Notes: a model not told the origin generated them from the letters alone. A stretch of DNA of 64,000 nt from Owenia fusiformis (GCA_903813345.2 CAIIXF020000001.1:24304001-24368000); one strand, 5' to 3'; counted from the stretch's first letter, positions 17,331 through 63,073 are shown. Program-made: numbers and translations.

Positions 17331-18667
17331 ATTTCCCACAATTTCTGTATTATCCAGGTTGATTGAGCCGAGGGCTTCAATGGAGACAACCCAGAAGACC
17401 ACTTCTTGTACCTGAAAATTGAGAGGGTGTCACACCCTGTTCCACGCCTTCTGAAATATCTTTTTCAGCCATTTATTGACACTATTTTATACTGATATGC
17501 GACAAACGCAATAATGACCTATTATATGATTAATAATAGACACATAACCTGCGGAAACTAGTATTATTATGCAACATACTCTGACTGGACTACCCCATTT
17601 TTAGTCAAAATACAAAATATCATTATTAAGTATTTAATTTTTAGAAATTAATTATGCTTATTGACAATGACTAATATTGTTGCACAGTCTACAAGGGATT
17701 GACTACCCTAGTTTTAGTCGACATTAAACACCCTCTGAATAATTGTTAACACATCAATGATACAAAAGATAGCATAATGGCTCGATTGTTACATGGTAGT
17801 AGCGCCTCAAAAGTGATTTTGAAGTGAAATTAATTTTCTGAGATGTCAATAAGTGTAAAATTTAGAACAAATGACAAAGAGAAAGCATTCCCCCAACAGT
17901 TATGTTTATTCACAATGAAAGATTGACATTTTCCTTATCCATATTTCATTGCATGACCACTATTCTAGAACATAGTCAGCCTTATCCATACTAGGTCTTA
18001 CACTAAAAAATACAAATCACATTCATTTCGTATTGGTTGCTCAAGTGATTTAGTCACTTATGAGCCAAGGATTTTATACATTTCTCCGCTATGTGTGATT
18101 CTCTCTTTAAACATAAATGATTAATCAAGTGTTTTAGATATTCAAAGGATAAACAAAGCAGTCATTGTAAAATAAAATGCAAACATTATCTAAATTATCC
18201 TTCACAACTTGGGGAGAATCATTATTGGAGGTTGAGTATCATCCAGAATAATTAAGGCATCTCCCTTCTCTTCAACTCCAGGCATGTCTGTGACAATGTC
18301 ACCTAAAAAGGGGGTACCTGTAAATTATTTGTTTTATTTTATAACATATGCTTTATGGGGACTCCTCCGAACCTAGAAATTACATTTCAATAAATTTCAA
18401 AAAAGAGATAAAAGATGATTACAACCTCATTTTAGATGTTAGTTTCCTTATACTTTACAATATATCAGAACTGGTTTTTATGTTTCAAATATTGCAACTG
18501 CAAATTGGCAAATAACTTAAATTAAGTGGGCATATATTTTCTGTTTGCTTACAAATACCTGTTTGTGCTGCATGTTCAACTGATGTTACTGTTTTTGTCA
18601 AATTATAACTCATTTCACAAAATCGACTGGAGCTGTTTTGGTTTTGAGGTTGGCAGGTCTTTTTTAC

Positions 18668-18868
18668 CTTTCTCTGAGATTTCGCCAGCATCACTGTCAA
18701 CATCACTGTCTTTTAAAAACAGTTGGCAATTGATTGTGTACATACTATACATTCTTTTTCTGGTCTAACACAACATATACCATCCTCTGAAGTCTGGACC
18801 CTTAGGCTGTGTTTTATGTGGGCAGTCAATTTTCTTGTATCCTGTTTGCCAGAATATAAGAAACACAT
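18668..18868 (-). pseudogene. Degenerate YR His/Tyr exon (copy 1)
   Basis: TTTCAG|MCFLYSGKQDTRKLTAHIKHSLRVQ...EK G|GT, homologous to the MKHS exons. A decayed acidic exon (DIVTDMPGVEEKGDALIILDD) follows at about 18230-18305. Confidence 0.6.
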
Positions 18869-18999
18869 CTGAAATAACCGAAAGTTCTACTTTTTATTAG
18901 ACAAAAGTGTGGAAATAACATACATCATTCAACTTGATACAGTATAAGTTAATAGCCAAATGTTTTCTAATTAGATTGTAGACCACAAACTATTTTTTC

Positions 19000-21400
19000 T
19001 TTTCACAACCTTTATTTTACTCAACAGGACGTTTCGGATACTAACTGGATCCTTTTTAAACTGTTATAAAAAACTGAACTGAAGCGCTACAAAACAAGTT
19101 AAATAAAAACAATACGTCATATTAATTCACCAAAAATCTATTTCGAATTTCCGCCAATTTATAGTTCCCTTGATCCATGTTCATATTAGTCTTCACTGTC
19201 ATCAGTATAAACTGCCACAGTGGCTCCAGGATTAACTTGGTCTAATATGCACTATTAGACCACATTTCACCAATTTTGGTTTCAATTGTTTCTCCTGTGT
19301 ATTGAAGTGCCTTGCTATATTGCATACAAACATTGATAACAATGTTGGCCTCATGTAAGGCAATCTTTTGTCCTGGCTAAATCAAGAAATCGGGGTTGGT
19401 TTGGATCCATTTGAACATTAGGATATTCTTTATGAAAGCTATTTACACTTCTGTTTAAATCCTCTCAAGAATGTGTCACATTTCCTTAGAGTATTCTTTT
19501 GTAAAAATATTGCAATATTCATCATCTGTTTTATTTTCCTGTTGGGCTTTGCCAAAATTCATATACTTTTTGTTTGTCTGTATTTGACATCAATCTCCTT
19601 GTTCTCTTCCTAGTGCACACTAAGGCAGATTCAGGATGGTTCTGGTATGACTTGTCAGTTTTAAAGTCCTATACTGAAGGTTCAGGTCATTAAGCTAGAT
19701 AATGGTGACCACTGAGACTTTCAGTTACCTGCTTGCCAAATTGTCACAAGAAGGTGTAATGTGCTAGCTAAATGGCTAGCTCAAGTGTCATAAGACAATG
19801 TGCCATGCTTAGGAGTATTCACTCATACTTTTTTTCTTAATTTAGATTACATTTATTAAGAGAGCTTATTCCTCAAAGGTGCATCTATGCTTGTCCAGCC
19901 ATTGGATATTTTATTTAGCATATTTTGCATGGTTTGTAATGATATTTTTCTAGTTTTATGGTCAACTTCCTGCTATATTCATGTCTAAATTCATCCATAT
20001 AATTCCCAGGTATTTTGTAGCTCCTATCTTTCATGTAAACCTGTTAAATATGTTTTGGTAGGTCTGTGTACTTGCTTAAACACATTGAACAAATGTGTTT
20101 CCTTCTCACCATTTTATTTTCAAAGTTGGTTCATGGGATCCGGAAGTACAAAATTAACCTCAAGTGAACTACTGATACTACAACCATTAAAATCTCACTT
20201 AAGGTATAAATAACCTTTTACTTAGATACAATTGAGGATATTTATATATTTTTTTGCCCAAGAGTAAATTTTGTTTTGTTTGTAGTATTAAAATGTTCCT
20301 TCACAAAGGTAATGTTCTTTTCCAATTTCATTATGATATGAAATCTTAGTTGATTTGTTATAGAATTTTCAATCAGCATAGTTACTGTGGATTGCAGAGT
20401 GACATAGCTTGATCGTCCGGAACTTCTTTTTACCAGGGCGCCATTTCTAATGCCTTTTCGTCCTGCAATCAGGAGATTTTATCTGGTATAACATTGTTGA
20501 ACCATCTGGAGCCCAGGGAGTTCTTAAATCTATGTGTACCTGGAATTTCTACATCACATTTTTCACTACATTCCTTATTCATTTTAATTTCTTAACTATT
20601 CTTGTCATTTCTACCATTCTACTATTTTGGCTTTCTTTGCCCTAAAACTCTGATTGGCAATCAACACAATTTTGATCACCCTCTTGATCTCAAGGATTTC
20701 GTTTTGTTGATCATCTTTTCATGTAAAGCACAACCTGTTATTTTTGCACTCTGAAAACTTGCCATGATTTTGATAAGCCATATCGTGCTTACCAACCCTG
20801 TATCTCCTGGGATCCCAAATTTGTGAGTTATTGTGAGCTTGGCTAGGGAAACATGGAACTGTCTGATACTGCTGAAAGTTTTGGAGTTATTTGCGCCATG
20901 ATTATTTCTGGGGTTGTAATACACTGTTCTGGGAATGTACATATTAGGTTGCATTATCTGCCCACATGGTGGCATCATTTGATTTACCAATCCCAAACCT
21001 TAAATCACCTCATTTTGACCTATTTGTTGTAATTTTTGCTAAATTCTGCTAAATTCTGCATAACCTGTTATCTGTATTTTGGTCAAGTGGGGCCTGATTT
21101 ACCACACTCAAATTAGCCACGTTTTTCCACCCTTTATGGAAAATTTCATATTTGACTCATTTGCATAGTCTCATTTAAACTTCCCGGGTCTTCCGAAGAT
21201 TATATGGTCATTGAGTACATCATTAAAGCATTCTGATGCCTCCCTTTCTTTTTCTTCAAAGATGCACCAGTCATTCTATATTATAGGCAAGAACCATCAC
21301 ATCTTCGTTATGCTGGCACTTTCAAGTTTTAAACTGAATTCTGAACTTTTCATGTTTGTGTAATAGATCATTCAGTGCGCTTAGTAGTTCATCATAAACA
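19000..21400 (-). mobile_element. Highly degenerate Penelope-like element remnant
   Basis: The 3' end NMDQGNYKLAEI resembles Penelope GIY-YIG C-termini and is followed by a GGATCC..GAAACGTC hammerhead-like end. The internal part is poorly resolved. Confidence 0.4.
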
Positions 21401-21741
21401 GGAATTCTGAACCAGTTGACTGCTTGTCAACTGCAGGAACAAATTTCCATAGAACAGTTCTGATTTCATTGATGTCATTTGTCTAGTTTAGGAGATATTG
21501 GCTACTTCAGTGGTTACCCTTTTTCCGGTCACCCTGTAACTTAGGTCAGAGAGTATGCTAGTATTTGAAACGGGAGGCAAAACTTGCCTTTGAATACCTT
21601 TATTTAACTGATTGATCTACCTGTGTAGTTTTGTTAAAACGTAACCTGTGTTTCTGGTTTTGGGACGTTTATTTTGATTATTCAAACCTTGTAATTCACC
21701 ACTTTCTACCTGCTCACCACTAGGTGGTTCCAACACATTTG

Positions 21742-21871
21742 TATTTGATTGTGCACATACGATGCATTCTTTTTCTGGTCATATACCATCCCCTGAAGGA
21801 CCCTTGGGCTGTGTTTTATGTGGTCAGTCAATTATCTTTTATCCTGTTTGCCAGGATACGAAGTAACACAT
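21742..21871 (-). pseudogene. Degenerate, truncated YR His/Tyr exon (copy 2), part of a duplication of ~18790-19230 at ~21790-22230
   Basis: YPGKQDKR*LTDHIKHSPRVLQGMVYDQKKNASYVHNQ after TTTCAG. Flanks match 18.8-19.2 kb. Confidence 0.6.
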
Positions 21872-23799
21872 CTGAAATAACAGAAAGTTCTACTTTTTAT
21901 TAGACAAAAGTGTGGATATAACATCCATCATCCAACTTGATACAGTATAAGTGAATGGCCAAATGTTTTCTAATTGGATTGTAGACCACAAAACTATTTT
22001 TCTTTTCACAACGTTTATTTTTCTAAACAGGACCTTTCGGATCCTGTCTGAATCCTTTTTCAACTGTTATAAAAACTGAACTGAAGCGCTTAAAACAATT
22101 AAATAAAAACAATATTACCTCATATTAATTCAGCAATAATTCATTTCAAATCCCCGCCAATTTATAGTTCCCTTGATCCCTGTTCATATTATTAGTCTTC
22201 ACTGTCAACAGTTTAAACTGCCTCAGTGGTTTAACTGTGGTTATCTATCTGCTGACATTTAACCATGTGTGGTTTATTGCCGCCTAGATAGGCAAATGCC
22301 TCTTGAGTGCCCAATGTGGTTGCCTGCCGCTTGGGGTAGTCTCCAATCATGATATATGGCAAAATGGTCCCTGATGTAGATAATTTGTCTGTACGCACTG
22401 TTACTGTGTGATATTATGTAAAATTATATATATATATATATTCCCAGATACCTGGTTATATAGTCTAAAGCACAATATTTGATCACAAATTGCCATTAGT
22501 TATCATTGAGTGGTAATGTTCATTCTTCTGACATTTTAAACATTTTCTTCCAGGGTGAATTTACATTACAGCAATGTTTTTGTATATGTTTTTTCTGAAG
22601 AATTGCTCGTGTGACTTAAATGGACATTTAAATACAATTAATCGATGAAGCTTTTTAGTTTATTGGAGCACACTGAATTCATGTTTATTATGACATATTT
22701 TACCCCAATATTTTTTTTATATAATTGCATTATATCATTGTTGTTATATTTCCAGGTGAATGGTATAGTACAATGTATACGTATTGCATGTGGTGTTGGT
22801 CTTAACCTGTTGCTTGACTCTCAGTCAATGTGTCTTACTGCTGGTGCCCTATACATATAGTAGACACTATTGTACCACCTTTCTAGACTTAAATGTTAAC
22901 TTGCAAAGTACAAAACAAAGATATTTTTGTCATGTTTGAATAGATAGCGATTAATTGTCAATGGATGATAGGTCAGTTTCAGAAAATTGTGAGTTAGGCT
23001 GTTAGGACAGACATTATTATTCTTATATGGTGATATCTTATCCCCTACTCTTAGAATAAAACAATTTCTAGTATTAGTGTACTTACACTTTATATTTATT
23101 TCATTTTTTCAATTAAGCACGATAAACTCATTTCACTAAAATGTTACAATGTTGTAATGGGTGAATTATAGATGTATCCAAATGCTGACGTCACAAATCC
23201 AATATACTACAGGTATAAAAATATAAAGTGTTTTTTTTTTGTTTTCATTCAAATGTTAATTCATGTTAGAATATTGTGCAGAACAAATTAACAAAGCATA
23301 AGTATACTTATCTGACAAAGTCCGGCAAACACTTAAAAGTAACAACACTCATAAATAAAACAAATTAAAAATTAACAAGAGTGTTTGCAGTTTTCTCATA
23401 AATAATAAATAATCTCATTATTTATGAAAAAACACTACACTTAGTATTGTACAGTTAAGCTTGTGCAATCTCAATTTCTTGGGTTGGTAGGAATATGAAA
23501 TGATTTCTGGCTTTTTTCTTCAATAATTTTCATGATTGGAATTTATCAGCAATTTCCAGTGAATGGTATTCATAAAGACAGAGTTAACTGTAATCCAAGC
23601 AGTTGTTAAAACAGTCAGCATACTGTAATTGCTAAAATAGAGAAAAAATAACACAATAATACAACATTCACACATACTGTAGTTAGGTCGTCTTCCTCAT
23701 CTGCCTCATCCCCAACAACAAGAGCAGCATCCACTAAACTGGATTCATTAACTGTTCCTGAAGAACAGTGTTTTGTAACAATATTATTTTTCAACGCCT

Positions 23800-24875
23800 A
23801 ATCAAATTAAGTTTCATGTCATATTTTTGGATATCTTAAATCTTGTTTATACATTATACAAGTAAGTAATCCCTTAGGTTGTCTAACCTTCTTTTACTAT
23901 GTCCTCATCCTGGTCCATCAGCACATTACTGATGAGGCTGTGGACAGTAGTGGAATTATGAGACTGATCATGCAGATCATAAACCTCCCTCTGCATTGTC
24001 ATACTGTGCTTCATATAACTGGCAAGCCTTTGGCGATCCTCTTGCCCAGGGTAAAGATGGCACATCTAAAATTATCCTCACTTTACATAATATACAGAAA
24101 TGACAAAAATATTCAATTTTGCTAACCCTAGTTACCATGGTTAGGCATACCTAAAATTAAGTTTTATGTTATATTTTTGGATATTTTAAATCTTGTTTAT
24201 ACATAAAATTTGTAAGCAATTCCTTAGTTGTCTAACCTTCTTATACTATGTCCTCATCCTGGTCCATCAGCACATTACTGATGGTGCTGTGGACAGTAGT
24301 GGCGTTATGAGATTGATCATGCAGATCATAAACCCCCCGCTGCATTGTCATACTGTGCTTCATATGACTGGCAAGCCTTTGGCGGTCCTCTTGCCCAGGG
24401 TAAAGATGGCATCTAGAATTATCCTCACTTTACATAATAAACAGAAATGACAAAAATATTCAATTTTGCTAACCCTAGTTACCATGGTAAGGCATACCTA
24501 AAATTAAGTTTTATGTTATATTTTTGGATATCCTAAATCTTGTTTATACATAAAATTTGTAAGCAATTCCTTAGTTGTCTAACCTTCTTATACTATGTCC
24601 TCATCCTGGTCCATCAGCACATTACTGATGGTGCTGTGGACAGTTGTTGCATTATGGGACTGATCATGTAGATCATACACCTCTCTCTGTAAAGTCATAC
24701 TATGTTTCATGTGACTTGCAAGCCTTTGGCGGTCCTCTTGCCCAGGGTAAAGATGGCACATCTAAAATTATCCTCACTTAACATAATCAACAGAAATGAC
24801 AAAAATATTCAATTATCATTCAAAAGTGGATTCCCCCTATGCTTACCCTAGTTACCATGGTTATGCATACCTAAT
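23800..24875 (-). repeat. Three tandem ~350-bp units, each carrying a YR His/Tyr exon (23888-24065, 24237-24412, 24584-24761)
   Basis: MCHLYPGQEDRQRLASYMKHSMTMQREVYDL, AG/GT-bounded. One copy is open, one has a 2-nt deletion, and two have a late TAA. Confidence 0.9.
23888..24065 (-). CDS. Tyrosine recombinase C-terminal catalytic exon (H/Y motif)
   Basis: 178-bp exon; LASYMKHS..Q..VY matches YR box II (LGH...Y nucleophile). An acidic exon follows at about 23682-23757. Confidence 0.65.
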
Positions 24876-26049: not shown

Positions 26050-26420
26050 GACTTTATTAAAAAATTTTTTAGATGTTTCGAATGCAAACTGCATCCATGA
26101 TAACTAAATTTAAATTGAAAACAGTTGAAATGAATACAGGTAAATCTACTATTATGTCAATAAAACCTTAACAACGTAAAGAAATAATTAATTGCAAAGG
26201 CAATATAACTTCATCCCGCAAGCGATCTAGATTGAACTTGGCCATGTCTCTATTGACATTTTTATGTTCTCTAATGTGAATGGCTTCTCTTATCAACCTA
26301 TTGTTTCTGTTCCTTTCTGTGCTAACTATTTTATAATTGTAATAATAATTGTCAATTTCGTGGTTTTCTGCTACATTAGTATTAGGGCTTTTCTTCTTCC
26401 AACATCTCCGTGTCAACCAG
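26050..26420 (-). mobile_element. Penelope-like element 3' remnant (GIY-YIG C-terminus)
   Basis: HEID..YKIVSTERNRNNRLIREAIHIREHKNVNRD, followed by a GGATGCAGTTTGCATTCGAAACATC hammerhead-like stem. Confidence 0.7.
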
Positions 26421-26789
26421 ATCTAAAGGGTTTGAAAAAGCAAAAATCAAAATAAAAAAACAAATGCATATCATTATCCTCCTCAACCAGAGCTTCATCC
26501 CGAATAACTAAGTCCTCTTCTTACTCCTCAATAAAATCTGAAATAGGGGCAACCATACATTATTTGTATGATTTTATGACGTATGCTATAAAGGGAATCT
26601 ACCCAACCTAGAAGCTACATTTTCATAATTTCGAACATGGACATTTACATTTTCTGCATTTTAGATGTAATTTTGTGTGCAGATTCAATCTCTTTTAATG
26701 CGAAGAAAGAGAGACTTATATTTTCATTCAGAAGTTAATTCATGTTAAATTAAAATATAGACCGGAACAAATTAACGAAGCATATACTT

Positions 26790-27417: not shown

Positions 27418-27459
27418 AATCAAAGGGAATGCAAGTTCAATTAATGCTTAGCATTTTTT

Positions 27460-29846
27460 CCTTCTCGGGCTATCCTAGTGTTTGTATGTAGCCTGACATC
27501 TTTGACAGCTGAAGAGGGGTGTTTCCTGATGAACCCTTTCATGTCTCTTCCCAAGCTGTTTCCCAGGTCTTTTGACATTGATCACATATGAATGACCTCG
27601 CTGATGTTCCTGTAATCATAACATTTAGATGTTTATTCCATAGTAATCATTATATTTGAAGTATATCATGTCAAAATAGAAATAGTATTTTTGTAATCAG
27701 TGTCGAAATATGATATCCTTTATTTAAAACAGGACACATTTGAACAGTATCATATATTTGTCCAGTAACTCACCAGAAAGGTTTTAAATGTGGTCAATTT
27801 AACATTTCAGTTTTAATAATTTTAAAGCCATGTAGCAGAATAGACGAGATTGAGAAATATTAATTTAAGGCCATGCTCTTCTTCTTCCTCTCCTCCCTCT
27901 TCCCATTCCTCATCATTTTCAGGAATCACTTTCTTTAAAAACAAGATGATTCTATAATGACTAAAGGGATATCAAATTCTAAAGCCAACTTTAAGACAAT
28001 TTTCAGCAGTTTGATGACCCAATACATGTTATTTAAATAAAAACAACAAATACTAAATACATCTTATCAAATACCTTTAAAACAGCTACAGTTTATCATC
28101 TCTATTGAAATCTTAGTTTAAACTTTAAACATCATTCATAAATATCTGAATCTATTTTCTATATTTAACTTACCTTTCCTATCATTTTATCCTTTTGAGC
28201 TGGTGGACTAGGAAGGTTCAAACTGGTGATAAATTCTCTATTCGCTTTCTGGTTTTTTCTTACTACATCAGTTAATGTTTCCTATAACAAGAAATAACTA
28301 GTTATCACCAACATCTCATCATATTATTAGTTACTTAACATAAATAATTTTATAGATTATCATATTTATATTATTATTTTATAGATTATCATATTTATAT
28401 TATTATTTTATAGATTATCATATTTATATTATTATTTTACCCTATCACTAAGATTTCTTCTAATAACTAAGATTTCTTCTAATATTGTGATATCTCCAGT
28501 ATTGTTGGCAAAATGCTACAAAACTTATTCAGATATACTAGTAGCAAGGCCAGTAAAGTATTGGAGCAGATTACTATTATAACTTATACATTTATTCTTT
28601 TGTTGGCCCAACATAGACTTGATTTTGTAAAATGATTTTTTTAAATCAAATTATGGTCAGATGAATTAAAAAAATGAGTCAAACATCAATATCATTAAAC
28701 TAGGTCTCAAACAAAGAACTCATATACTGTTAGTTATAAACTCACATTATCGTGCAGGTCAGTTTGGATATTTTTGCCAGTAACCTGAAATGGGATGCAC
28801 AAAATACACTCAAAATAAGTTACAATGAAGCACAGGTAAATATGCTAGGGGTTTCACAAGAATGTCTCACAGCAGGCTAAATAAATTAGAACAACAGGCA
28901 AAATTACAGACACTATGACACCACTATGTAGCTGAGTATTTCATAAATGTTTTGAAGCACTATTAAATATTCCATTTAATTAATAGGGGACAGGTCCATC
29001 TTACCGGATATTGGTACAGCCAGTTAATAGTAAAGCTTCTTTTTTCCAAAAATTCATTGTTCTATATACTTTTAAAAACAGTTGTATGATATGATTTGTT
29101 AGTCTTGAGGCCTGCAATACTAAAGTAAATTTGGTTTTCAGTTTCTTCAAGAATTTCTATTCTCAAGCAATCTACCAATAGGACATTCAATTTCAGAATA
29201 AAAAACAAATGCATACACTATCTGAATTTCTATTCTCAAGCAGAATAAAAAACACATGCATACACTATCTGAATTGTCCTCATCATCCTGAGCATCCGCA
29301 ATTGGAGCATCATCCACAAGGAGTAAGTCATCGAGTTCCTCATCCTTAGGCATCTCTGTATTGTCCTCCTCAACCTGAGAATCATCTTCCAGAACCAAGG
29401 CATCTGCCTCATCCTCTGGCATTTCTGTGACAATAACACTTGAATTTACAACATAGGCTCTAACAGAATAAGGGAATCTACCCAACCTAGAAATTACCTT
29501 TTTTAAACAACAATTTTGCAGTAGTTTTTGTAACAAACATGCAGTTACTTTATCCGTTAAGTAAATATCAAATTAAAATTAAATGAATGTATTTATTATA
29601 TATGATATATTATATTCCTGAAATTTTCTTTCCTGTTACTGAGTTACCTTACCTGTTACCTTTCTCTGGGTTTTCGTCCACCTCATTTTGGAATACATTT
29701 GCCATAAGGTCATGGATATATTGGGCATTTTTGGTTTCATCACTGACATCATACAAAGCCCTCTGCACTCGAACGCTGTGTTTCATATGATCAGCCAATT
29801 TTCTTCGGTTTGCTTCCAAATGCATTCTTATTGGATTGTATCCCAA
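27460..29846 (-). pseudogene. 3' half of a multi-exon YR-zinc-finger gene: H/Y exon, acidic exon, 39-bp exon, 108-bp exon, acidic exon, C2H2 pair
   Basis: Successive exons: LADHMKHSVRVQRALY (~29658-29815); VTEMPEDEAD..DNSDS|GT (29264-~29440); VTGKNIQTDLHDN (28746-28784); ETLTDVVRKNQKANREFITSLNLPSPPAQKDKMIGK (28174-28281); KVIPENDEEWEEGGEEEE (from 27932); FICDQCQK..KRHERVHQETPLFSCQRC (27460-27609, frameshift and stop). Confidence 0.6.
28351..28438. repeat. 29-bp minisatellite x3
   Basis: TATAGATTATCATATTTATATTATTATTT repeated perfectly. Confidence 0.9.
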
Positions 29847-30589
29847 ATAATATTTATAATATTAGCTTTAACCTTTCAATTCCACAAACCCCATGTATGC
29901 AGGTGTCCTATCAGGTATAACAATTTAAGCGTATTCAAAGTGAGGTTTAAGTTCTCATTTAGAAGTTAATTCATGTTAAAATAGAATATTGATTGGAAAA
30001 AAATAACGAAGCATATCTTATCTAACAAGGTCCTGCAATTGTCATCCTTGTAAACACTTCAAAGTAACCAACCATATTAATCAACAAATATAAAGAGAGG
30101 TGCAGTTTTCTAATAAATAATGACCACTTACCATTTCAAAACAACACATTATTCATTAGAAAACTATTCAGTAGGAAACTATTCAGTATAGTTAAGCTTG
30201 AAAATAGTGAATAGTATAGAATTCTTTGATCAATTAAAGCTGCAACCATTAGTGCAGGGGGCCAGTGTCAAAATGTATTAAGTTTGGATATTTCAGCAAG
30301 ACTAACATATATTTTTATTATCTACAAAGAAATCCCGTGGATGAACATCATTTCAGCTGATATTCCTCTTGAAACATGGTGGGCAGGTATATTCACTAGT
30401 ACAAGATTGACTGTAACCTCAGAACACAAACAGAATAGAAATTGGAATTCCTAAAACAGAGATTAAAGGGAGTATCAGATCTATAGAGCAACCTGTCCAA
30501 ATAGTGTATAAATTTCATATTATATTTTTGTATGTCGTTTACCCCTTATATATCTGACTCTGCTTTTAAACAACAAAATGTTAGTGTTG

Positions 30590-33500
30590 ATGAACCGAAC
30601 GTTTTGTGCAGCTTGTTTCGCACTTTCTTCACTTTTGTTACCTCCTGATGGCGAGATGAGCCATTTGACAAACATTTTTAGATTATCGTTGAAACTGTTT
30701 GTGGGCGATTTAATATTTACATTCTATTTGTGTTTGTCCAACCTTTGAACACTTTTGCTACAAGATTGGCATTGTTTGTACTCGTATTTCCAAACATTCC
30801 CACATGCTTTTCTTTGCCTTGAATACTCATGTGAAAAATCGTTCTTGTAATTCTCCGGAATTTTGTATTCAGGGTCTTTCATATGAACCTGTTGGAAATG
30901 CTTTTTAAGATATCCAATCTTTTTAAAGCATGTAGGACAGGTGTGCTTGCTTCTCTTCTGTTAACTCTGAGAATATTAAGTTGACACAAGCTAACTACTG
31001 CAAAATTTTATTTGATTCAATTAACGTTTCTGATATGCCCATAATTAACATTCAATTTTTACCTTTTCAATTGATACTATTATTGATGTTAAACTGAATG
31101 TTAAATGCATATTTAGTTTATTATTTCAGTTCAACATTTCCTTTTAATTGTTTATTTGATTATGACAATTGGGTAAAATCTGAATAAAATAATAAATCTA
31201 TAGTTCTGTCCAATTCCATTTGTGGTTCCATTTTTGGTAAGGGCATATTGCTAACCTTCTCCAGCTTCCTCTTGCACATTACTGTTTAAGACATTTGTCA
31301 TGAGGTCATGGACTTTCGCAGCATTCTTTGTTTGGTCGCTGACCTCATACACTTCCTTCTGTACCCTGACAGAATGTTTCATGAAGTCAGCAATCCGTTG
31401 GCGATCATCTTGCCCAGGGTACAAACTACATATCTAAAATGATAGATGTGTCTATGATTTAGACACAAGTGTGGATGTAACATATAGGCTTACATGTAGC
31501 ACCACTATGAAACATTAAAATTAAATCTTTAATATATATTTTAGTTAAACTGTTTTTTTAATCAGATGGTATCATATTGTAAGGAAATGATTTATAATGA
31601 TATATAAAACATGTCATGGTGTAGTATTATATAATAAGATATTCATCCTTAAACTTGGGTATTGGGTTTTTTGACCCACCCTGTATATTCTTATCTGACA
31701 AAACCCCACAGATATATGATAAGACAGCTGCAACGTCAGCAGTTCTTAATACTACAAGCGAAATTGGAACTTCAATATAAAACAGACAAAGGAATTAAGT
31801 AATACCAATGTGTTGTGAAGTGTTAAATTGTGAAAGTAAAATATTGTTAATATAACAACCTGTCTAATCTAAAGACAATCGAACCAGAAAAAGTGTCCAG
31901 AAGAGCAAGTGTTCACATTTCAAGGTTTTTAACATGGAAATCACAAATATGATATAAAATGTTTTGGCCTGGGAAGTCTGTGTTAATGTTAACCCATCTA
32001 TTACCATTCTCTCTAGGTTTACATCAGGCCCATCTATTACCATTCTCTCTAGGCTTACATCAAACCCCTGTATCACCATGTATCATTTTGCAGTATACTT
32101 ACATGGTAAACATAGTAGTCTCCAACCCTGTCAGTGATATGAACATGCCTGCACTCTAAGTTTACTATCGGGTCTGCATATAACGGTCATGATATAGTTC
32201 CTTATTATGTACATTTCTTTGATGTTGACTTTAGGTTTTCCAAAGAGAGCTTTAGTGTCTTTGACATACTGAGAACCATAATATTTCACAATATCATCTC
32301 TGGTCATCATTGGACCGGTTTTTAAGTTTCCGCTTCTTTGACATAACATTCATAGAATTGCATCGAGTCTATTCTGTTTTTTTAATAGTTCAAATTGTCC
32401 AAAATCTATGGATTTTTGCATAAAAGAAGGTACTGGTGGTTAGTTTGCAGCCGTTCTAAATATGACTTAATGGTCGACGCTTGCTTGATTTGTGGAAATT
32501 TTACATTCAAAGCAGGCTCTAAAAAATTCTCATTCAAGAGGTTTGAGTCCAAAGGATAATATCCTCCAACTCCTGCATGAAGGTCTTCGATGAATCAAAC
32601 GTTTTGTGCAGCTCGTTTCGCACTTTCTTCACTTTTGTTACCTCCTGATGGCGAGATGAGCCATTTGACAAACATTTTTAGATTATCGTTGAAATTGTTG
32701 TTGGCAATTTAATATTTATATTCTTTTTGCATTTGTGTTTGTCCAACCTTTGAACACTTTTGCTACAAGATTGGCATTGTTTGTACTCATTTCCGAACAT
32801 TCCCACACGCTTTTCTTTGCCTTGAATACTCAAGTGAAGAATCGTTCTTGTAATTCTCCGGAATTTTGTATTCAGGGTCTTTCATATGAACCTTTTTGGA
32901 AATGCTTTTTAAGATATCTAATCTTTTTAAAGCATGTAGGACAGGTGTGCTTGCTTCTCTTCTGTGTTAGCTCTGAAAATATTAAGTTGACACAAGCTAA
33001 CTACTGCAAAATTTTATTTGATTCAATTAACGTTTCTGATATGTCCTTATCTAAGTTACATTCAATTTTTACCTTTTCAATTGATACTACTATTGATGTT
33101 AAACTGAATGTTAAATGCATATTTGGTTTATTTTTTCAGTACAACATTTACTTTTAATTGTTTATTTATTTGATTATGACAATGGGGTAAAATCTGAATA
33201 AAATAATAAATCTGTAGTTCTGTCCAATTCCATTTGTGGTTCCATTTTTGGTAAGGGCATATTGCTAACCTTCTCCAGCTTCCTCTTGCACATTATTGTT
33301 TAAGACATTTGTCATGAGGTCATGGACTTTTGCAGCATTCTTTGTTTGGTCGCTGACCTCATACACTTCCTTCTGTACCCTGACAGAATGTTTCATGAAG
33401 TCAGCAATCCGTTGGCGATCATCTTGCCCAGGGTACAAACTACATATCTGAAATGATAGATGGGTCTTATGATTTAGCCACAAGTGTGGATGTAACATAT

Positions 33501-35820: not shown

Positions 35821-36784
35821 TTTCTGGGTCACATTTCTAAAATCAATCAAAACCAACTATAACAATTATCTAGAGTTAACATTATACACACCAACTCCTC
35901 CAAATTAGCCTTGTTCCTAATGGTCCTTTCATATGACGGAGAGAACATCATACAAGCCAACTCCTACAAATATTTTCCATGTTAGTGTTATTCCATATGG
36001 TCCTTAATACACACCAAATTCAAACCAAATCCCCCAAATATTTTCTCTGCCAGCATTATTCCTAATGGTCCTTTCATATGATGGAGAACTTAATATTATC
36101 CAAACCAACTCCTCCAAATATTTTCTCTGCTAGCATTATTTCTTATGGTCCTCAATACAAACCAAATAGAAATACAAACTAAATCCTCTTTTTTCTCTAA
36201 TAGCCTTAAGGTCCGTTGAAATACCAGAGAAATGAACATTACATACAAACCACAAACCAGATTCTCGAAATAGTATCCCTTTAGTCTCATAAAACTCAAC
36301 AATTCATGAAACACAATGCATGGAAACACAAGAGCCTCATAAGGTTTTGCAAATCAATTTTGTTTTGCTTGGTCTCTCTTTATGCGTGATTTTTATGAGG
36401 CCCTTTCAAAAACATAATATGTAGTCAAACATAACAAATACTTTGCCAAGATGCACTCCGAGTTAATGTTGAAAACTGTTATGAATATTAGATGGTATAA
36501 TGCCATGTATAGGTTATCAAAACTAATTTTAGATGCTTGTATCAAGGATTGTGAACGATATTTCCACATAAGAATTTCATTTGCTATCCATCAATTTCAG
36601 CATATGTTGTTAATCATCTAAAGATTCCTCTATTAACAAACCCTGATAATGCCTTCCCTTCAAAAAGATATTATGTTTTAAAATTCATTTCAATTATGCA
36701 TTAAAATCTATAGTTTTTATTAGTTTTAATAACAGGAGTGCACCTCACAAACTGTAATAAAATGAAACATTTCTTCTTCACTAT

Positions 36785-39311: not shown

Positions 39312-39319
39312 TATTTATA
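39312..39319 (-). promoter_or_regulatory. TATA box upstream of the SGNH ORF (repeated per unit)
   Basis: TATAAATA about 46 nt upstream of the ATG, preceded by GC-rich GTCGCGCG. It is mutated to AATAAATA in units 2 and 5. Confidence 0.45.
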
Positions 39320-46400: not shown

Positions 46401-48975
46401 CCTTTCCAATGATACCAAATACTCCAAGATACTTCAAAACTACCATTATGAAATAATAAGATTTGATCTCATTTTTGAAAAAAACATTGCAAAAGAATCT
46501 GTGGTGGATCAAGAAGTGCATGTATATTTATTAGTATACAGTTTGTAATCCTTAGCATGGCGGACGGGAATTGTCGAAGTCTTTATACAACTGTAACCTC
46601 TCTTTTTAGACAGGGCGACCATAGTATTACGCCATAGTCTGTTTTGCTTGACAAATAAGTCATAGTCCCGAGTTTTGATTTCTTTGGTGCACAAAAGCAG
46701 GTATTGGTGATACAACTGTAACCTCTCTAAATATGATTTTATGGTCGATGCCTGCTTAATTTCCAAACATCACCTCTTTTGGCCTTCTTCTGGACTGATC
46801 GCTAATAGTTGGACCCTTGCCACCTGTGGTTGTCAGCTCACGAAACATGTCACAGATTTCGATCCCATCTTCGTCTTGTACCCACTTTCGGATGAGCTTG
46901 TTGAGACTTTTAGCCCTCCGATTGTACCATTGGTACTCAGTCACCTTAGGAAACATAGCGGAAACTATGATCCTGGCTCGGGCCTTAGTACGAATCAGTC
47001 GAACCGCTGTCTTCAATCTTGACAAGACTTTCCCCTGCAACTCCCTGGGTCTGCCGTCCTTGCGAGTCAGAATGCAATAACCAAGATGAAGAATGATGAC
47101 TCGTGTAACCGAGATAAGATGTCAATCATCTGCATCCACATCCATGCTCCACTCATCAACAACATCATCAAGGTCCTGCAACCTTCTTCCAGGTTTGGCA
47201 TCAGTTGAAGCATATACGTGGTCACCAAGTTTCTTATCAAGATAACGACTCATCCCATGTGCATGAGAATCACCGAGTACTAGAACATGGTCTGACATTG
47301 TGATATCTCAACTCCAGGTGGAATAGCTGTGTTTTCAAAGGTCTATTTATAGAACGCGCGACGACCTCTGAGAACAATTGATATTGCCTTGTACTAAAAT
47401 ATATAAAATCAACTCATATTGATTGGAGTTGTGTTTGTTTGTCTATTCTAAATACCTAATTTTGCATCTCTTTATTCAGATTTTTGCAATTTTTTATAAT
47501 GTTCCAATGATACTTTTCAATACCTTTCCAATGATACCAAATACTCCAAGATACTTCAAAACTTACCATTATGAAATAATAAGATTTGATCTCATTTTTG
47601 AAAAAAAACATTGCAAAAGAATCTGTGGTGGATCCAGAAGTGCATGTATATGTATTAGTATACAGTTTGTAATCCTTAGCATGGCGTACGGGAATTGTCG
47701 AAGTCTTTATACAACTGTAACCTCTCTTTTTAGACAGGGCGACCATAGTATTACGCCATAGTCTGTTTTGCTTGACAAATAAGTCATAGTCCCGAGTTTT
47801 GATTTCTTTGGTGCACAAAAGCAGGTATTGGTGATACAACTGTAACCTCTCTAAATATGATTTTATGGTCGATGCCTGCTTAATTTCCAAACATCACCTC
47901 TTTTGGCCTTCTTCTGGACTGATCGCTAATAGTTGGACCCTTGCCAGCTGTGGTTGTCAGCTCACGAAACATGTCACAGATTTCGATCCCATCTTCGTCT
48001 TGTACCCACTTTCGGTTTTAGCCCTCCGATTGTACCATTGGTACTCAGTCACCCTAGGAAACATAGCGGAAACTATGATCCTGGCTCGGGTCTTAGAACG
48101 AATCAGTCTAACCGCTGTCTTCAATCTTGACAAGACTTTCTCCTGCGACTCCCTGGGTCTGCCGTCCTTGCGAGTCAGGTTGCAATAACCAAGATGAAGA
48201 ATGATGACTCTTGTAACCGAGATAAGATGTCAATCATCTGTATCCATGCTCCACTCATCAACAACATCATCAAGGTCCTGCACCCTTCTTTCAGGTTTGG
48301 CAACAGTTGAAGCATATACGTGGTCACCAAGTTTCTTATCAAGATAACGACCCATCCCAAGTGCATGAGAATCACTGAGTACTAGAACATGGTCTGACAT
48401 TGTGATATCTCAACTCCAGATGGAATAGCTGTGTTGTCAAAGGTCTATTTATAGAACGTGCGACGACCTCTGAGAACAATTGATATTGCCTTGTACAAAA
48501 ATATATAAAATCAACTCATTGATTGGAGTTGTGTTTGTCTATTCTAAATACCTAATTTTGCATCTCTTTATTCAGATTTTTGCAATTTTTTATAATGTTC
48601 CAATGATACTTTTCAATACCTTTCCAATGATACCAAATACTCCAAGATACTTCAAAACTACCATTATGAAATAATAAGATTTGATCTCATTTTTGAAAAA
48701 AACATTGCAAAAGAATCTGTGGTGGATCCAGAAGTGCATGTATATGTATTAGTATACAGTTTGTAATCCTTAGCATGGCGAATGGGAATTGTCGAAGTCT
48801 TTATACAACTGTAACCTCTCTTTTTAGACAGGGCGACCATAGTATTACGCCATAGTCTGTTTTGCTTGACAAATAAGTCATAGTTCGAGTTTTGATTTCT
48901 TTGGTGCACAAAAGCAGGTATTGGTGATACAACTGTAACCTCTCTAAATATGATTTTATGGTCGATGCCTGCTTA

Positions 48976-51900
48976 ATGTTAGGAAATTCCTTATTAAGGG
49001 TAGGGGTGTTTTCAAGCTCTCTCTTTTTAGACAGGGCGACCATAGTATTACGCCATAGTCTGTTTTGCTTGACAAATAAGTCATAGTTCGAGTTTCGATT
49101 TCTTTGGTGCACAAAAGCAGGTATTAGTGATACAACTGTAACCTCTCTAAATATGATTTTATGCTCGAAACCTGCTTAATATTAGGAAATTCCTTATTAA
49201 GGGTAGGGGTGATGGATTTTTTACAAAGAACATTTTGGTCTTTGGGATTATAGCCTCCAACACCAATGTGTAAGTCCTCAATAAACTTAATATTATGAGC
49301 AGCACGTTTTGCTGTCTCGTGACTTTTGTTGCCTCCGGATGGGCTGGAGTGCCAGGCAATGAAACGTTCCATCTTTTCAGTAAAATTGGTTGTTGTTTTA
49401 GCTTTTCAGTAAAATTGGTTGTTGTTTTAGGTGCAGATGTTTCACATGTTTTTAAATGTTTGTCAAGTCTTTGGACATTTTCCCACATTTTTTATATTTA
49501 TATTGTCTTTTGATTCGACACTCTTCTTTTTCTAGAATATTCATGAGAAAATGTTGCTTTAAAATTTTGGGGAATTTTATAATTTGGATCTTTAAAATCT
49601 GCTTGTCTTAGATTCTTTCATGAATGAGAGGGAACTTAACATTATACATAAAAAGCAGAAATCATCTCCTCCAAATAGCATACAAACCAGAAAATCTCCT
49701 CCAAATGTTTTCTCTGCTCGTCTTAGATCCTTTCATGAATGAGAGGGAACTTAACATTATACATGCAAACATATACATAAAAAGCAGAAATCATCTCCTC
49801 CAAATAGCATACAAACCAGAAAATCTCCTCCAAATGTTTTCTCTGCTCGTCTTAGATCCTTTCATGAATGAGAGGGAACTTAACATTATACATGCAAACC
49901 AGAAACCACCTCCTCCAAATATTTCCTCTGATAGCCTCAAGGTCAGAGAGAATGCAACATTACATACAACCACAAACAAGCTGACCTCCAAATATTATCC
50001 TTTCAGTCTCATAAGCCCAACATTACATGTTCACAAATACAAACACAATGCATAGAACTCAAAGAGCCTCTTAATAATTGTTATTGTTTAGATTCCATAT
50101 CCCATAAAATGAAGTGAGGTATTTTATCATAAATCTGATTCTCTATTAAGTTCTAATTTATAGTAATCCTTGGATAAGAAACAAAGTTGTGATTCTTCTA
50201 TGAGGCTCTTTCCAAAACATCATATAAAGTCAAACATAACAAACACTGTGGTAAGATGCACTCCGAGTAAATATTAAATAAAAACTGAAACAAATATTGT
50301 AGATGGTAGAAAAAGGACATGAAGGTTATTCAAACTAATTTTAGATGCTTATATATTGGATTATGAATGTTATTTTCATATTGGGATTACATTTGCCATC
50401 CATCAATTCCAAAATTTCAAAAATTCATTTTCCTTCAAGAAATAAATCATGTTTTGAAGTTTATTCTTATTATGCATTAACCTTCAGATGACATACATAG
50501 GAGAGGGTTACTGTTTAAAGGTTAAAAACTTTAACAAAAAGTTGCTTTTTTGGAGACAATAATTTGATTTCCTAAATGGTGTACTGAGCAGGATTAATTT
50601 GCAATAATACTTACATGGTAAACATAACCATGTCCAATTTTGTCTGCTTGGTTGACATGCCTGCATTCAAGATTAATGATTGGTCCTGCCCGGCATGCAT
50701 TTGGGATACAGATAATTGTCATCAAGTAGTTTCGCAGGCGATACATATCACTACTTTCAATTTTTTCTTGGTCGAATAATTCTTTGTTTTTTTTACATAA
50801 GCTGAACAATGGAAGTCTTTAATATCTTGTTTTGTGGGGAGATTTTCTGCACTATTTGCTTGATTTTCAAGCTCTCTCTTTTTAGACAGGGCGACCATAG
50901 TATTACGCGATAGTCTGTTTTGCTTGACAAATAAGTCATAGTCCCGAGTTTTGATTTCTTTAGTGCACAAAAGCAGGCATTGGTGATACAACTGTAACCT
51001 CTCTAAATATGATTTTATGGTCGATGCCTGCTTACTGTTAGGAAATTCCTTATTAAGGGTAGGGGTGTTTTCAAGCTCTCTCTTTTTAGACAGAGCGACC
51101 ATAGTATTAGGCCATAGTCTGTTTTGCTTGACAAATAAGTCATAGTCCTGAGTTTCAATTTCTTTGGTGCACAAAAGCAGGTATTAGTGATACAACTGTA
51201 ACCCCTCTAAATATGATTTTATGGTCAATACCTGCTTAATGTTAGGAAATTCCTTATTAAGGGTAGGGGTGATGGATTTTTCACAAAGAACATTTTGGTC
51301 TGGGATTATAGCCTCCAACACCAATGTGTAAGTCCTCAATAAACTTAATATTATGAGCAGCACGTTTTGCTGTCTCGTGACTTTTGTTGCCTCCGGATGG
51401 GCTGGAGTGCCAGGCAATGAAACGTTCCATCTTTTCAGTAAAATTGGTTGTTGTTTTAGGTGCAGATGTTTCACATGTTTTTAAATGTTTGTCAAGTCTT
51501 TGGACATTTTCCCACATTTTTTATATTTATATTGTCTTTTTTGATTCGACACTCTTCTTTTTCTAGAATATTCATGAGAAAATGTTGCTTTAAAATTTTG
51601 GGGAATTTTATAATTTGGATCTTTAAAATCTGCTTGTCTTAGATTCTTTCATGAATGAGAGGGAACTTAACATTATACATAAAAAGCAGAAATCATCTCC
51701 TCCAAATAGCATACAAACCAGAAACCTATCTCCTCCAAATGTTTTCTCTGCTCGTCTTAGATCCTTTCATGAATGAGAGGGAACTTAACATTATACATGC
51801 AAACCAGAAACCACCTCCTCCAAATATTTCCTCTGATAGCCTCAAGGTCAGAGAGAATGCAACATTACATACAACCACAAACAAGCTGACCTCCAAATAT

Positions 51901-52497: not shown

Positions 52498-52518
52498 TTA
52501 ATTTGCAATAAAACTTAC

Positions 52519-53720
52519 ATGGTAAACATAACCATGTCCAATTTTGTCTGCTTGGTTGACATGCCTACATTCAAGATCAATGATTGGTCCTGCCCGGCAT
52601 GCATTTGGGATGCAGATAATTGTCATCAAGTAGTTTTGCAGGCGATACATATCACTACTTTCAATTTTTTCTTGGTCGAATAATTCTTTGTTTTTTACAT
52701 AAGCTGAACAATGGAAGTCCTTAATATCTTGTTTTGTGGGGAGATTTTCTGCACTATTTGCTTGATTTTCAAGCTCTCTCTTTTTAGACAGGGCGACCAT
52801 ATTATTACGCCATACATGTAGTCTGTTTTGCTTGACAAATAAGTCATAGTCCTGAGTTTTGAATTCTTTGGTGCACAAAAGCAGGTATTGGTGATACAAC
52901 TGTAACCGCTCTAAATATGATTTTATGGTCAATGCCTGCTTAATGTTAGGAAATTCCTTATTAAGGGTAGGGGTGTTTTCAAGCTCTCTCTTTAGACAGG
53001 GCGACCATAGTCTGTTTTGCTTGACAAATAAGTCATTGTCCCAAGTTTTGATTTCTTTGGTGCACAAAAGCATGTATTGTTGATACAACTGTAACCTCTC
53101 TAAATATGATTTTATGGTCGATGCCTGCTTAATATTAGGAAATTCCTTATTAAGGGTTGGGGTGATGAATTTTTCACAAAGAACATTTTGGTCTTTGGGA
53201 TTATAGCCTCCAACACCAATGTGTAAGTCCTCAATAAACTTAATATTATGAGCAGCACGTTTTGCTGTCTTGTGACTTTTGTTGCCTCCGGATGGGCTGG
53301 AGTACCAGGCAATGAAACGTTCCATCTTTTCAGTAAATTTGGTTGTTGTTTTAGGTGCAGATGTTTCACATGTTTTTATTATTAAATGTTTGTCAAGTCT
53401 TTGCACATTTTTCCCATATTTTTTACATTTTTTCCCATATTTTTTACATTTTATATTTATATTGTCTTGTTTGATTCGGCACTCTTCTTTTTCTAGCATA
53501 TTCATGAGAAAATTTTGCTTTAAAGTTTTTGGGAATTTTATAATTTGGATCTTTAAAATGTACTTGTCTAAAATGTTTGGGGAGGCCTTTATATTTATTC
53601 AAACATGTAGGGCAGGTATGCTTCCTTCCCTCTTTTTTGACACTTGAATCTGTTTTGGCACTCTGTAGATTTTCAGTTTTGGAAATACAAAATTACCACA
53701 AGCTAACTACTGCTAGATTC
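52519..53720 (-). pseudogene. Most complete copy of the YR large N-terminal exon (Zn-finger motifs, core-binding domain, catalytic Arg)
   Basis: KHTCPTCLNKYKGLPKHFRQVH is frameshifted into the 335-aa ORF: VQRLDKHL, WYSSPSGGNK, STIKSYL (internally duplicated ~60 aa), NYLMTIICIPNACRAGPIIDL (box I Arg at 52594-52596), YVYH|GTAAGT. Confidence 0.72.
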
Positions 53721-53788
53721 TATTAAATGATCATGTTTGATACAATTACAAATCTCATTAAGTTATTTTACATATTTTTACTAGTATA

Positions 53789-61700: not shown

Positions 61701-62219
61701 AAAAGCGATTGAACTATGTTATAGAATAACGTCCAGTACATTATAATATGTAAAAGTATAAATTTTTGAAAATACATATAAAGATCTTCGCCCGCAGGAC
61801 GTGTATTTTGAATGCCTTGAGAAGAACGCAAATATGGGTAGGCTAATTGGTAACGGTATTGCAATAGTAGCATTTAAAAATCTGTTCCTCTCGAGATGAA
61901 ATTATACTATTGATTGGTGTTGCTGCATCATTGCTCAAATCTAGAGGAGTGTTGTTGCATCTTCGGTTTGGTGTTGTTGCATCAATAGTGAGGAACTAAA
62001 ACCGTGAACTTATTGCTTCTTGGTGATGGTATATGTATACTAATGACAGTTTCTTTAAATATAGATCGTGCGCTAACTGTACATGTATGGTTATTGAGCA
62101 ACTCGTCCTAGAAATGGGTTTAATTGGGGAAACAAAATATCGTACGAAAATCTATCACCGGAAGTCTGGCCATCTTGATGCAACAACACGGTGTTGTTGC
62201 ATCACGATACTCCCCAGTG
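58750..62219. mobile_element. 3.47-kb non-autonomous TIR element, CACTG termini, ~250-bp TIRs, apparent 6-bp TSD
   Basis: CACTGGGG(G/A)GTATCGTGATGCAACAACACCG at both ends. TTCTCT is duplicated, and excision restores the satellite unit GTCTTCTCTGCTTGTC. Confidence 0.85.
60432..61008. mobile_element. hAT-type MITE nested in the TIR element
   Basis: TAG(T/A)GGTGTCAA termini, TTAACCGGTTAACC subterminal motifs, 8-bp TSD GTTTACGC. Confidence 0.88.
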
Positions 62220-62379
62220 TTCTCTGCTTGTCTTAGATTCTTTCATGAATGAGAGGGAACTTAACATTATACATAAAAACCAGAAATCATCTCCTCCAAA
62301 TAGCATACAAACCAGAAACCATCCCCTCCAAATGTTTTCTCTGCTTGTCTTAGATCCTTTCATAAATTGAATAGGATGA

Positions 62380-63073
62380 TTGGCAAACTATCCTTGTGCT
62401 TGTAGGATTTATTGCATCCGGGACAAGTCAATGATGCACTGTCCTTATGCATGGCAACATGCCTTCTAAGTTGCCAACCAGTTTTCTATTCCTCCGAACA
62501 TATCGAACATATGTGTACACTTTGTCCTGGAATAACAAGGAAACAATTTTTGAACAAAGCATTAACTTAGTGAAGAGATACAGACATTCAATCAATTTAA
62601 CATCACTTCTTGTTGGTAGCATGCTAGCAACCATCAATTCACAATGGTCACCAGGAGAAAATATGGCTGGTTTCTATCTTTGAGATCTGCATTTTTAATG
62701 TCAGTTAGGGTCCTATATCACTACACAGTGTCCACATCATGCAGTTCATTACTATTAATGAATTATTTCAATAGTTTATCAATAAGCATTTCAGAAGAAT
62801 ATACTTAAGTAGTAATTCAGGCCCGTAACGGGGGAGGGGAGTTCGAGCAAACCCCCCTTGCCAAAAAAACTTTCAAAATCATGCAGTTTTTCACCATTCT
62901 GAGCACTTTTTAAGTGATTTTGGCCACTTTTGGACCAAAATTGTCATAAGTGAACTCCCCTGGAATTTAAAAAAAGTGAACCCCTTGGCAAATCCTGGCT
63001 ATGGGCCTGTAATTTAAGGTCCTACTTCTTCTTCCTCTTGCCATTCTTCATCATCATCATATTTAATTACTCT
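62380..63073 (-). pseudogene. Second copy of the acidic and C2H2 terminal exons
   Basis: RVIKYDDDEEWQEEEEVG (63020-63073) and CSICSEE*KTGWQLRRHVAMHKDSASLTCPGCNKSYKHKDSL (62380-62527) parallel the exons at 27.5-27.9 kb. Confidence 0.6.
62818..63009. mobile_element. Short MITE (CAGGCCCGTA..TATGGGCCTG); relatives at ~37740-37860 and ~55090-55268
   Basis: Short TIRs, TAATT on both flanks, shared core AAAATCATGCA.TTTTTCACCATTCT. Confidence 0.65.

Follow-up and report, generated by a model that had tools for sequence, protein, structure and literature searches.

Probable death-phase tandem cluster of paralogues from a tyrosine-recombinase-derived gene family in Owenia fusiformis

Within a 64,000-nucleotide stretch of the Owenia fusiformis genome (GCA_903813345.2 CAIIXF020000001.1:24304001-24368000; hereafter the window), repeated pieces of a spliced gene that encodes zinc fingers and parts of a tyrosine recombinase occupy about 45 kb. 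The initial annotation, made from the sequence alone, described a composite zinc finger-recombinase-acidic-C2H2 gene and offered two origins for it, either the recombinase of a large Crypton-like or virus-derived element or a domesticated recombinase family in tandem birth-and-death. The locus raises the question of what these pieces descend from and whether any of them still works. It was analysed on the basis of the window itself, public protein collections and public sequencing runs labelled as the same species. The locus is probably a tandem cluster of same-strand paralogues from an uncharacterised metazoan family that has introns and derives from tyrosine recombinases, now in the 'death' phase of birth-and-death, and is itself most likely non-functional.

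The pieces recur in one order on a single strand. Motif scans of the three minus-strand frames, together with stop-to-stop open reading frame (ORF) lists, placed all family pieces across the 45 kb on the minus strand; the window, with a GC content of 0.29-0.41, is AT-rich, and the introns of the pieces studied are of the GT-AG type. The large exon encodes, in order, an HTCPTC...H...VH finger, a C..C...VQRLDKH finger, W.SPSGGNK, STIKSYLERLQ, NACRAG (in two copies) and YVYH, after which GTAAGT follows. Eight MKHS- or IKHS-type exons are present, and acidic exons lie at 29.4, 27.9, 26.5, 23.7, 18.3 and 63.1 kb (Table 1). The scans and ORF lists bear out the inventory first drawn up for the locus, which comprised the large exon, eight MKHS exons, acidic exons and a C2H2 pair, all on the minus strand. 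The length of 178 bp given there for intact MKHS exons was found exactly, between AG and GT, in four of the eight. A tblastx comparison among subfamilies B, C, D and E, made on the regions that lie upstream of their MKHS exons, showed only the MKHS exon as shared, with similarity ending at the AG acceptor; the exon-limited conservation between diverged subfamilies with shared splice positions, as proposed earlier, is real.

Homologues were identified with the most intact large-exon copy, A1, whose 366-codon open frame (53598-52501) was compared with 1.84 billion representative proteins using HMMER. This search returned 16 proteins at an expect value (E) <=1e-3, and a word-indexed protein search with the same frame returned none at that threshold. 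The best two HMMER matches were partial Owenia fusiformis proteins (CAH1778523 and CAH1778088; 33-35% identity). The other homologues were 450-850 residues long, the named ones coming from Nematostella, Dendronephthya and the crinoid Anneissia, and a profile search extended the family to Clytia and 29 more clusters. All named records, from Cnidaria, Annelida and a crinoid, are of 'uncharacterized', 'predicted' or 'unnamed' proteins, and a description of the family was not found in a literature search that lay outside the element-listing supplements of PMC3212892. The aligned homologues are all built alike, with two fingers and an acidic linker followed by F..WL.GPDGGRK, PGTVKSYL, NNGSRAG..NMT, YVV.VKKHKT, ATSFRKAAVSAVH and LADLM.H...TA..YY. 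On a profile built from 11 homologues, the large exon aligned to positions 11-425 and six of the eight MKHS exons (B2, B3, C and D1-D3) to positions 521-567. When 3,334 window fragments were scored with this profile, the A1 frame reached E 1.9e-29 and the MKHS exons 1e-4 to 3e-3. The NACRAG DNA pattern occurred twice, against 0.02 occurrences expected.

The relationship of this family to tyrosine recombinases was assessed by domain search and by structure. Pfam Phage_integrase matched 8 of 29 family members weakly and below threshold (best 1e-5), SAM-like core-binding domains matched as well, and the profile of 11 homologues gave only chance matches against PDB sequences (E>=0.34). An AlphaFold model of a full-length homologue, P0015, was made from a 29-row alignment, with a mean predicted local distance difference test score (pLDDT) of 75.9. 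Foldseek placed it closest to Cre (1crx_A, E 1.3e-4), with 30 matches at E<=1e-3; the 21 listed at that threshold were Cre (one of them a Tre variant), XerA or XerH, and lambda Int, IntI and other integrases followed at E up to ~1e-2. In full-length relatives, a pair of CPxxC...H...H fingers is followed by an acidic linker, then by a core-binding (SAM-like) domain and a catalytic domain that is Cre/Xer-like. For the 366-residue A1 frame of the window, the model (pLDDT 65.5) had no Foldseek match in the PDB at E<=1e-3, XerA ranking 15th at E 1.3. In an all-against-representatives comparison of this model, 9 of the 11 best rows were N-terminal core-binding domains of tyrosine recombinases or of the related Ndc10 (Z 9.0-6.4). 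Residues ~86-280 aligned with the Brujita Int N-terminal domain over 102 residues (Z 9.0; root-mean-square deviation 2.6), and Z was 8.7 for archaeal Xer, 8.5 for XerA, 7.3 for IntI, 6.8 for XerD, 6.5 for lambda Int and 6.3 for Cre, values that are moderate for a helical domain. The window ORF model contains the core-binding (SAM-like) domain of tyrosine recombinases. Taken together, fold and profile alignment identify NACRAG as the Arg I box and MKHS..Y as the His/Tyr box, in agreement with the initial assignment of both segments. The proposed recombinase homology of the pieces is likewise upheld, P0015 resembling Cre, XerA, XerH and lambda Int and the window ORF resembling core-binding domains, and an unnamed protein family is thereby linked to the tyrosine-recombinase fold.

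The middle of the catalytic domain was not detected in the window. The full profile gave no match there for the ~95 residues at profile positions 425-520, which include HKT with the hairpin Lys and FRKAAV with Arg II; two middle-only profiles matched the window only where they overlapped the MKHS exon start, and tblastn of 16 homologues against the window, among them P0015 with its shared ..DKH and LMKHS motifs, did not find the segment. From the catalytic residue set (Arg I, Lys, His/Arg II, His/Trp, Tyr), the window holds Arg I in A1 and A2 only and the His-Tyr box in the MKHS exons. Of the catalytic domain it encodes no more than the first helix, the first strand and the last helix, the full catalytic fold being matched in P0015 only. 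Since the donor of the large exon and the acceptor of the MKHS exon share phase 0, direct splicing would stay in frame. The preserved gene structure would thus comprise a large exon (fingers, core-binding domain, Arg I and first beta strand) spliced phase 0 to phase 0 to the 178-bp His/Tyr exon, with acidic exons and then C2H2 fingers after it, and the product of such a splice would lack about half of the catalytic domain. As the ~95 residues with the hairpin Lys and Arg II are absent, even an undamaged copy could, judging from its sequence, at most bind DNA and not recombine. With the middle of the catalytic domain missing, the window copies have the appearance of gene relics and not of a working recombinase. 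The suggestion that they encode the working recombinase of a Crypton-like or virus-derived element was not sustained, the catalytic middle being undetected and no copy in the window being intact.

Two further sequences were considered as sources of the missing segment. The ORF that continues after ALSKKR in a 1.14-kb tandem array was rejected as the HKT segment: hhalign aligned only its STIKSYL part and nothing of its second half, and tblastn with the Owenia protein P0001 showed collinearity with the ordinary large-exon continuation. The peptide string VVLRTADVAAV, which resembles Arg II, occurs in the introns of B2 and B3 (33720-33764 and 31705-31749, minus strand), where the missing segment would be expected, and is a lead only; the pattern was built after the sighting, without statistical support, and falls outside the 30 best matches of the middle-only profile.

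All large-exon copies are disrupted, showing at least two frames, stops or truncation, and both C2H2 remnants are broken; the initial annotation mentioned neither. Copy A1 carries a frameshift between its two fingers and an internal duplication of ~200 bp. A2 is split over several frames and contains a 204-bp internal duplication, with the NACRAG box and donor kept, and A3 lacks the NACRAG end and continues into the 1.14-kb array. In the B copies the Arg I box is altered and frameshifted. The donor CAT/GTAAGT is letter-identical in A1, A2, B2 and B3 and is lost in the E1 large exon, where ATTAGA stands at that position (GT mutated to AT). Three of the eight MKHS exons (B2, B3 and D3) are open with both splice sites, and five are damaged. 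A neighbouring long terminal repeat (LTR) retrotransposon (9417-14096, minus strand) has a 1,299-codon open frame (gag-like region, zinc knuckle, protease, DDE integrase and the start of the reverse transcriptase) followed by a 259-codon reverse transcriptase/RNase H frame. It looks recently active and is unrelated to the recombinase-like cluster, and because its 1,299-codon ORF is intact, general assembly noise is an unlikely cause of the defects in the copies.

Self-comparison of the window indicated that most of the 45-kb span arose by recent tandem duplication, in units of 347 bp and of 0.62, 1.14, 1.9 and 2.0 kb. In the 1.14-kb array, every unit combines a GDSL/SGNH-like ORF with a large-exon fragment (IKQASTIKSYL...ALSKKR and a diverged continuation), which places the SGNH-like ORF just downstream of a large-exon copy before amplification. 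The initial annotation mentioned neither the recent duplication of most of the span nor this array. The GDSL/SGNH assignment is a lead only (Pfam Lipase_GDSL E 0.28; atlas clusters with GDSL families, score 0.92), and a search for longer proteins containing this ORF found none. The copies may have multiplied by unequal crossing-over or tandem segmental duplication and been patched through gene conversion, and they have since built up frameshifts, stops, truncations and splice-site losses. Old subfamilies that lie in tandem on the same strand and share intron positions fit host-gene birth-and-death better than transposition, and the tandem birth-and-death option of the initial annotation is the one that fits these data.

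The decay of the copies followed a long period of constraint. Over 59 codons of A1 and B3, the proportion of differences was 0.95 at synonymous sites (pS) and 0.22 at non-synonymous sites (pN) (Fisher p 4e-16), and identity at codon positions 1, 2 and 3 was 66%, 88% and 36%. The MKHS exons of different subfamilies gave pS 0.70-0.89 and pN 0.28-0.40. The subfamilies differ at nearly all synonymous sites yet keep the protein, which indicates long purifying selection on the family; it was therefore functional for a long time, whether as host genes or as a selected element. Within the near-identical 347-bp units, D1 differs from both D2 and D3 by a mostly synonymous patch of ~70 nt. Between D1 and D2 this patch holds ~17 substitutions in ~70 nt, ~14.5 synonymous and 2.5 non-synonymous, and the flanking exon and intron are nearly identical.

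Expression was assessed with three raw RNA sequencing (RNA-seq) runs, 1.66-1.92 Gb of each being read and placed on positions 18000-37999. Depth over exon bins was 0-0.7 in all three, and no joint matched a predicted intron. The RNA-seq junctions by which the initial annotation proposed to check its gene model were thus absent over this interval, and of that composite gene the adjacency and repeated order of the pieces stand, without matching RNA junctions. RNA peaks in this region occurred only at repeats, a high-copy element at 30278-30382 and a satellite at 36.7-38 kb, with most reads just 95-99% alike. A fourth run, consisting of contigs of uncertain nature, covered introns as well and is uninformative on transcription.

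Several observations weigh against a locus made up entirely of dead copies. The A1 366-codon frame and the MKHS exons B2, B3 and D3 are still open. The patch in D1 suggests gene conversion from a paralogue that is now, or was formerly, under strong constraint, and functional members therefore probably exist elsewhere in the genome and possibly in the window. Short, diverged middle exons could escape profile searches. The hunt for an intact copy was confined to the window. The RNA comparison covered 6-12% of each run and 18-38 kb only, and the A copies (48.7-53.7 kb) lie outside that interval.

These points bear chiefly on a different, unlikely reading, in which at least one functional, domesticated, non-catalytic DNA-binding gene survives in the cluster and the broken copies are its dead paralogues. 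Such a gene could be made up of the large exon of A1, or a different 5' exon, joined by splicing to MKHS exon C or D3 and the acidic exons, and the product would have fingers and a core-binding domain with the recombinase core lost, by analogy with DUF3504 genes. Strong past purifying selection, the in-frame phase 0/0 junction between large exon and MKHS exon, the open frames in A1, B2, B3 and D3 and the conversion-like synonymous patch in D1 are all consistent with such a gene, and absence of the middle segment from B and E copies suggests that it was lost long ago. However, the three runs gave neither RNA coverage nor junctions over 18-38 kb, A1 has the frameshift between its fingers and the internal duplication, both C2H2 remnants are broken, and exon C is without its homologous acceptor. 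A more specific form of domestication is similarly doubtful: a catalytically gutted recombinase that comprises fingers, core-binding domain, Arg I helix, C-terminal His/Tyr helix and acidic and C2H2 exons, having lost Lys and Arg II before the B/E split and been under purifying selection afterwards, with D1-D3 as mutually exclusive alternative exons (178 bp is not a multiple of 3). If true, it would be an independent parallel to the Crypton-derived DUF3504 genes.

It is very improbable that the copies represent the recombinase gene of a mobile element, Crypton-like, giant or virus-derived, that is active or was so until recently. Relatives have a Cre-like fold and keep candidates for the Arg I, Lys, Arg II, His and Tyr residues, several Nematostella copies at least 90% identical lie on different contigs, some clusters hold 42-111 member sequences, and some relatives lie on contigs that barely exceed the coding sequence, which suggests that they are intronless. 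In the window, however, every copy is damaged and lacks the catalytic middle, the copies lie in tandem on the same strand and are not dispersed, and element ends are not definable. DUF3504, the CryptonA signature, was found in 0 of 29 family members at E<=0.01 (Pfam) and in 0 of 4 homologues even at E<=10. A scan of viral contigs with the family alignment gave 363 pattern matches, none confirmed, and a scan of metagenome contigs with the single protein P0010 gave 576, none confirmed; the Crypton-like or viral origin put forward initially thus lacks both the signature domain in the 29 members and a relative in the viral contigs. Hardly tenable, finally, is a derivation of the recombinase-like pieces and the adjacent SGNH-like ORF from an Ngaro-type retrotransposon (DIRS order). 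In the array a GDSL/SGNH-like ORF comes after a recombinase-like fragment on the same strand, and amphibian Ngaro-like elements have a hydrolase (SGNH) ORF after the recombinase in the available part of PMC9210276. But no reverse transcriptase or RNase H lies beside any copy, and the sole pol in the window is that of the LTR retrotransposon at 9417-14096, a separate element whose integrase is of the DDE type. In full-length relatives the recombinase part is preceded by fingers and an acidic region and not by a reverse transcriptase, and the SGNH assignment is itself only a lead.

Table 1 Positions of the gene pieces and tandem repeat blocks in the window
Feature	Position	Strand	Description
A1 large exon	52519..53692	-	fingers, W.SSPSGGNK/STIKSYL core-binding-like domain, NACRAG (Arg I) box, donor CAT/GTAAGT
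A2 large exon	~50615..51648	-	1.9-kb tandem unit, 93% identical to A1
A3 large exon	~48667..49617	-	frameshifted, truncated, 203-bp internal duplication
B1 large exon	~34820..35580	-	partial
B2 large exon	34118..34983	-	frameshifted
B3 large exon	32103..33000	-	frameshifted
B4 large exon	30589..30960	-	truncated, stop after RLDKHK
E1 large-exon remnant	~19235..20130	-	degenerate; finger region, FWQSPTGK, NIARH where NACRAG expected
MKHS exon B2	33270..33447	-	178 bp, bounded by AG and GT, open in phase 0, His/Tyr box
MKHS exon B3	31256..31433	-	178 bp, open
MKHS exon C	~29660..29826	-	coding part open; no AG at homologous acceptor
MKHS exon D1	24584..24761	-	178 bp, TAA at penultimate codon
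MKHS exon D2	24237..24412	-	176 bp, 2-nt deletion, TAA
MKHS exon D3	23888..24065	-	178 bp, open
IKHS exon E2	21709..21871	-	in-frame TAA, 1-nt shift at acceptor
IKHS exon E1	18716..18868	-	acceptor at homologous place; frameshifted downstream
Acidic exon after MKHS exon C	29150..29572	-	
Acidic exon after D3	23618..23797	-	weakly homologous to 29150..29572 exon
Acidic exon after E1	18205..18324	-	weakly homologous to 29150..29572 exon
Further acidic exon	26416..26520	-	
Second acidic exon	27825..27971	-	adjoins C2H2 remnant 27478..27646
C2H2 remnant	27478..27646	-	finger 1 frameshifted
Second acidic exon	63017..63148	-	homologous to 27825..27971
C2H2 remnant	62363..62485	-	in-frame stop in finger 1
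B block	30589..35836	-	~2.6 tandem 2.0-kb units, 95% identical; 0.62-kb inner duplication, 98%
1.9-kb units	48.8-53.6 kb	-	86-93% identical
347-bp tandem repeat x2.9	23804..24874	-	carries MKHS exons D1, D2, D3
1.14-kb array	38815..48977	-	~8.9 units, 93.5-96.3% identical, best at 3-unit shift; 10.2 kb

The acidic and C2H2 pieces at 62363-63148 probably form the 3' end of one more copy, the 5' part of which is outside the window. Directly downstream of the C2H2 remnant at 27.6 kb, a 124-bp tandem repeat (x5, 26790-27416) can be translated in several frames into a hydrophobic peptide that repeats. The satellite at 57904-58749, with a period of 32/63/148 bp, recurs at 49598-49921 and 51629-51826, in the spacers of the A units, and at 62217-62367, beside the 62.4-kb C2H2 remnant.

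Three RNA signals were seen in the interval covered by the runs. The RNA reads piled up on a short high-copy element at 30278-30382 run out into long loose ends at either side and carry fixed differences at positions 30296 and 30349, which indicates that they were transcribed from other copies. At 36785-38305, an AT-rich 48/85-bp satellite present in both orientations had an RNA depth of 1.4-7.4 per direction in the three runs, and these reads most probably come from many copies elsewhere. A joint between 18197 and 18987 with two extra letters, supported by 2-5 reads in each of the three runs, skips the E1 IKHS and acidic exons; it fits no predicted intron and could be from a deleted paralogue or an unrelated transcript.

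Other mobile-element sequences were also noted in the window. At 4989-5890 (minus strand), two overlapping ORFs of 139 and 189 aa were judged by eye to be a candidate C-terminal part of a non-LTR reverse transcriptase of the long interspersed nuclear element (LINE) type, and at 56394-57177 (minus strand) a candidate Mariner/Tc1-like transposase remnant in three frames was recognised from its translation by eye. The LINE, LTR and mariner remnants lie on the minus strand too, which prompted the idea of a uni-strand PIWI-interacting RNA (piRNA) cluster.

The value of the locus is mainly for annotation, since gene finders would split or miss its pseudogenes and macrosatellite-like arrays. It also shows a lineage in which the family came to contain introns, was deprived of its catalytic middle and multiplied in tandem. 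Functional members elsewhere in the genome, if there are any, would be one more instance of a domesticated recombinase.

The closest known counterparts of the window copies are uncharacterised metazoan proteins from Nematostella (XP_048578760/LOC5499247), Dendronephthya (XP_028415023), Clytia, Anneissia (XP_033114153) and Owenia (CAH1778523/CAH1778088), with which they have a motif order in common: two CPxxC..V..L..H...H fingers, W-L-x-x-P-x-G-G-x-K, T-[VI]-K-S-Y-L, N-[AG]-x-R-[AS]-G, Y-V-V-x-V and L-A-x-L-M-x-H-x(6-7)-Y. These relatives have HKT and FRKAAV between the last two motifs, whereas the window copies are without this middle segment. Several of them are apparently intronless and multi-copy, in contrast to the intron-bearing window copies, and their acidic region is N-terminal with no C-terminal C2H2 fingers seen, whereas acidic and C2H2 exons come last in the window. 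With Cre, XerA, XerD, XerH, lambda Int and IntI, the P0015 model has the core-binding and catalytic fold in common and the window ORF model the core-binding fold, as far as predicted structures indicate; sequence identity to these recombinases is 8-15%, with no sequence-level PDB match. The family also has T/S-x-F-R-K in place of the recombinase H-x-x-R motif, a part that the window copies do not have.

DIRS and Ngaro elements likewise encode a tyrosine recombinase, with an SGNH ORF after it in Ngaro-like elements in the text available from PMC9210276, and in the array a candidate SGNH-like ORF follows the recombinase-like fragment; unlike these elements, neither the window copies nor the full-length relatives are accompanied by reverse transcriptase or RNase H. 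Animal Cryptons, as presented in the accessible portion of PMC3212892, encode only a recombinase domain related to DUF3504, and the Crypton-derived DUF3504 genes named there (KCTD1, KIAA1958, ZMYM2-4, QRICH1 and WOC) are domesticated genes that lost catalytic residues. On that account, the likeness to the Owenia cluster lies in eukaryotic tyrosine-recombinase genes without a reverse transcriptase whose catalytic residues were lost, Lys and Arg II in the window copies. The window family differs from them in its N-terminal fingers and introns, and in having lost a whole segment of ~95 residues and not single residues by point changes.

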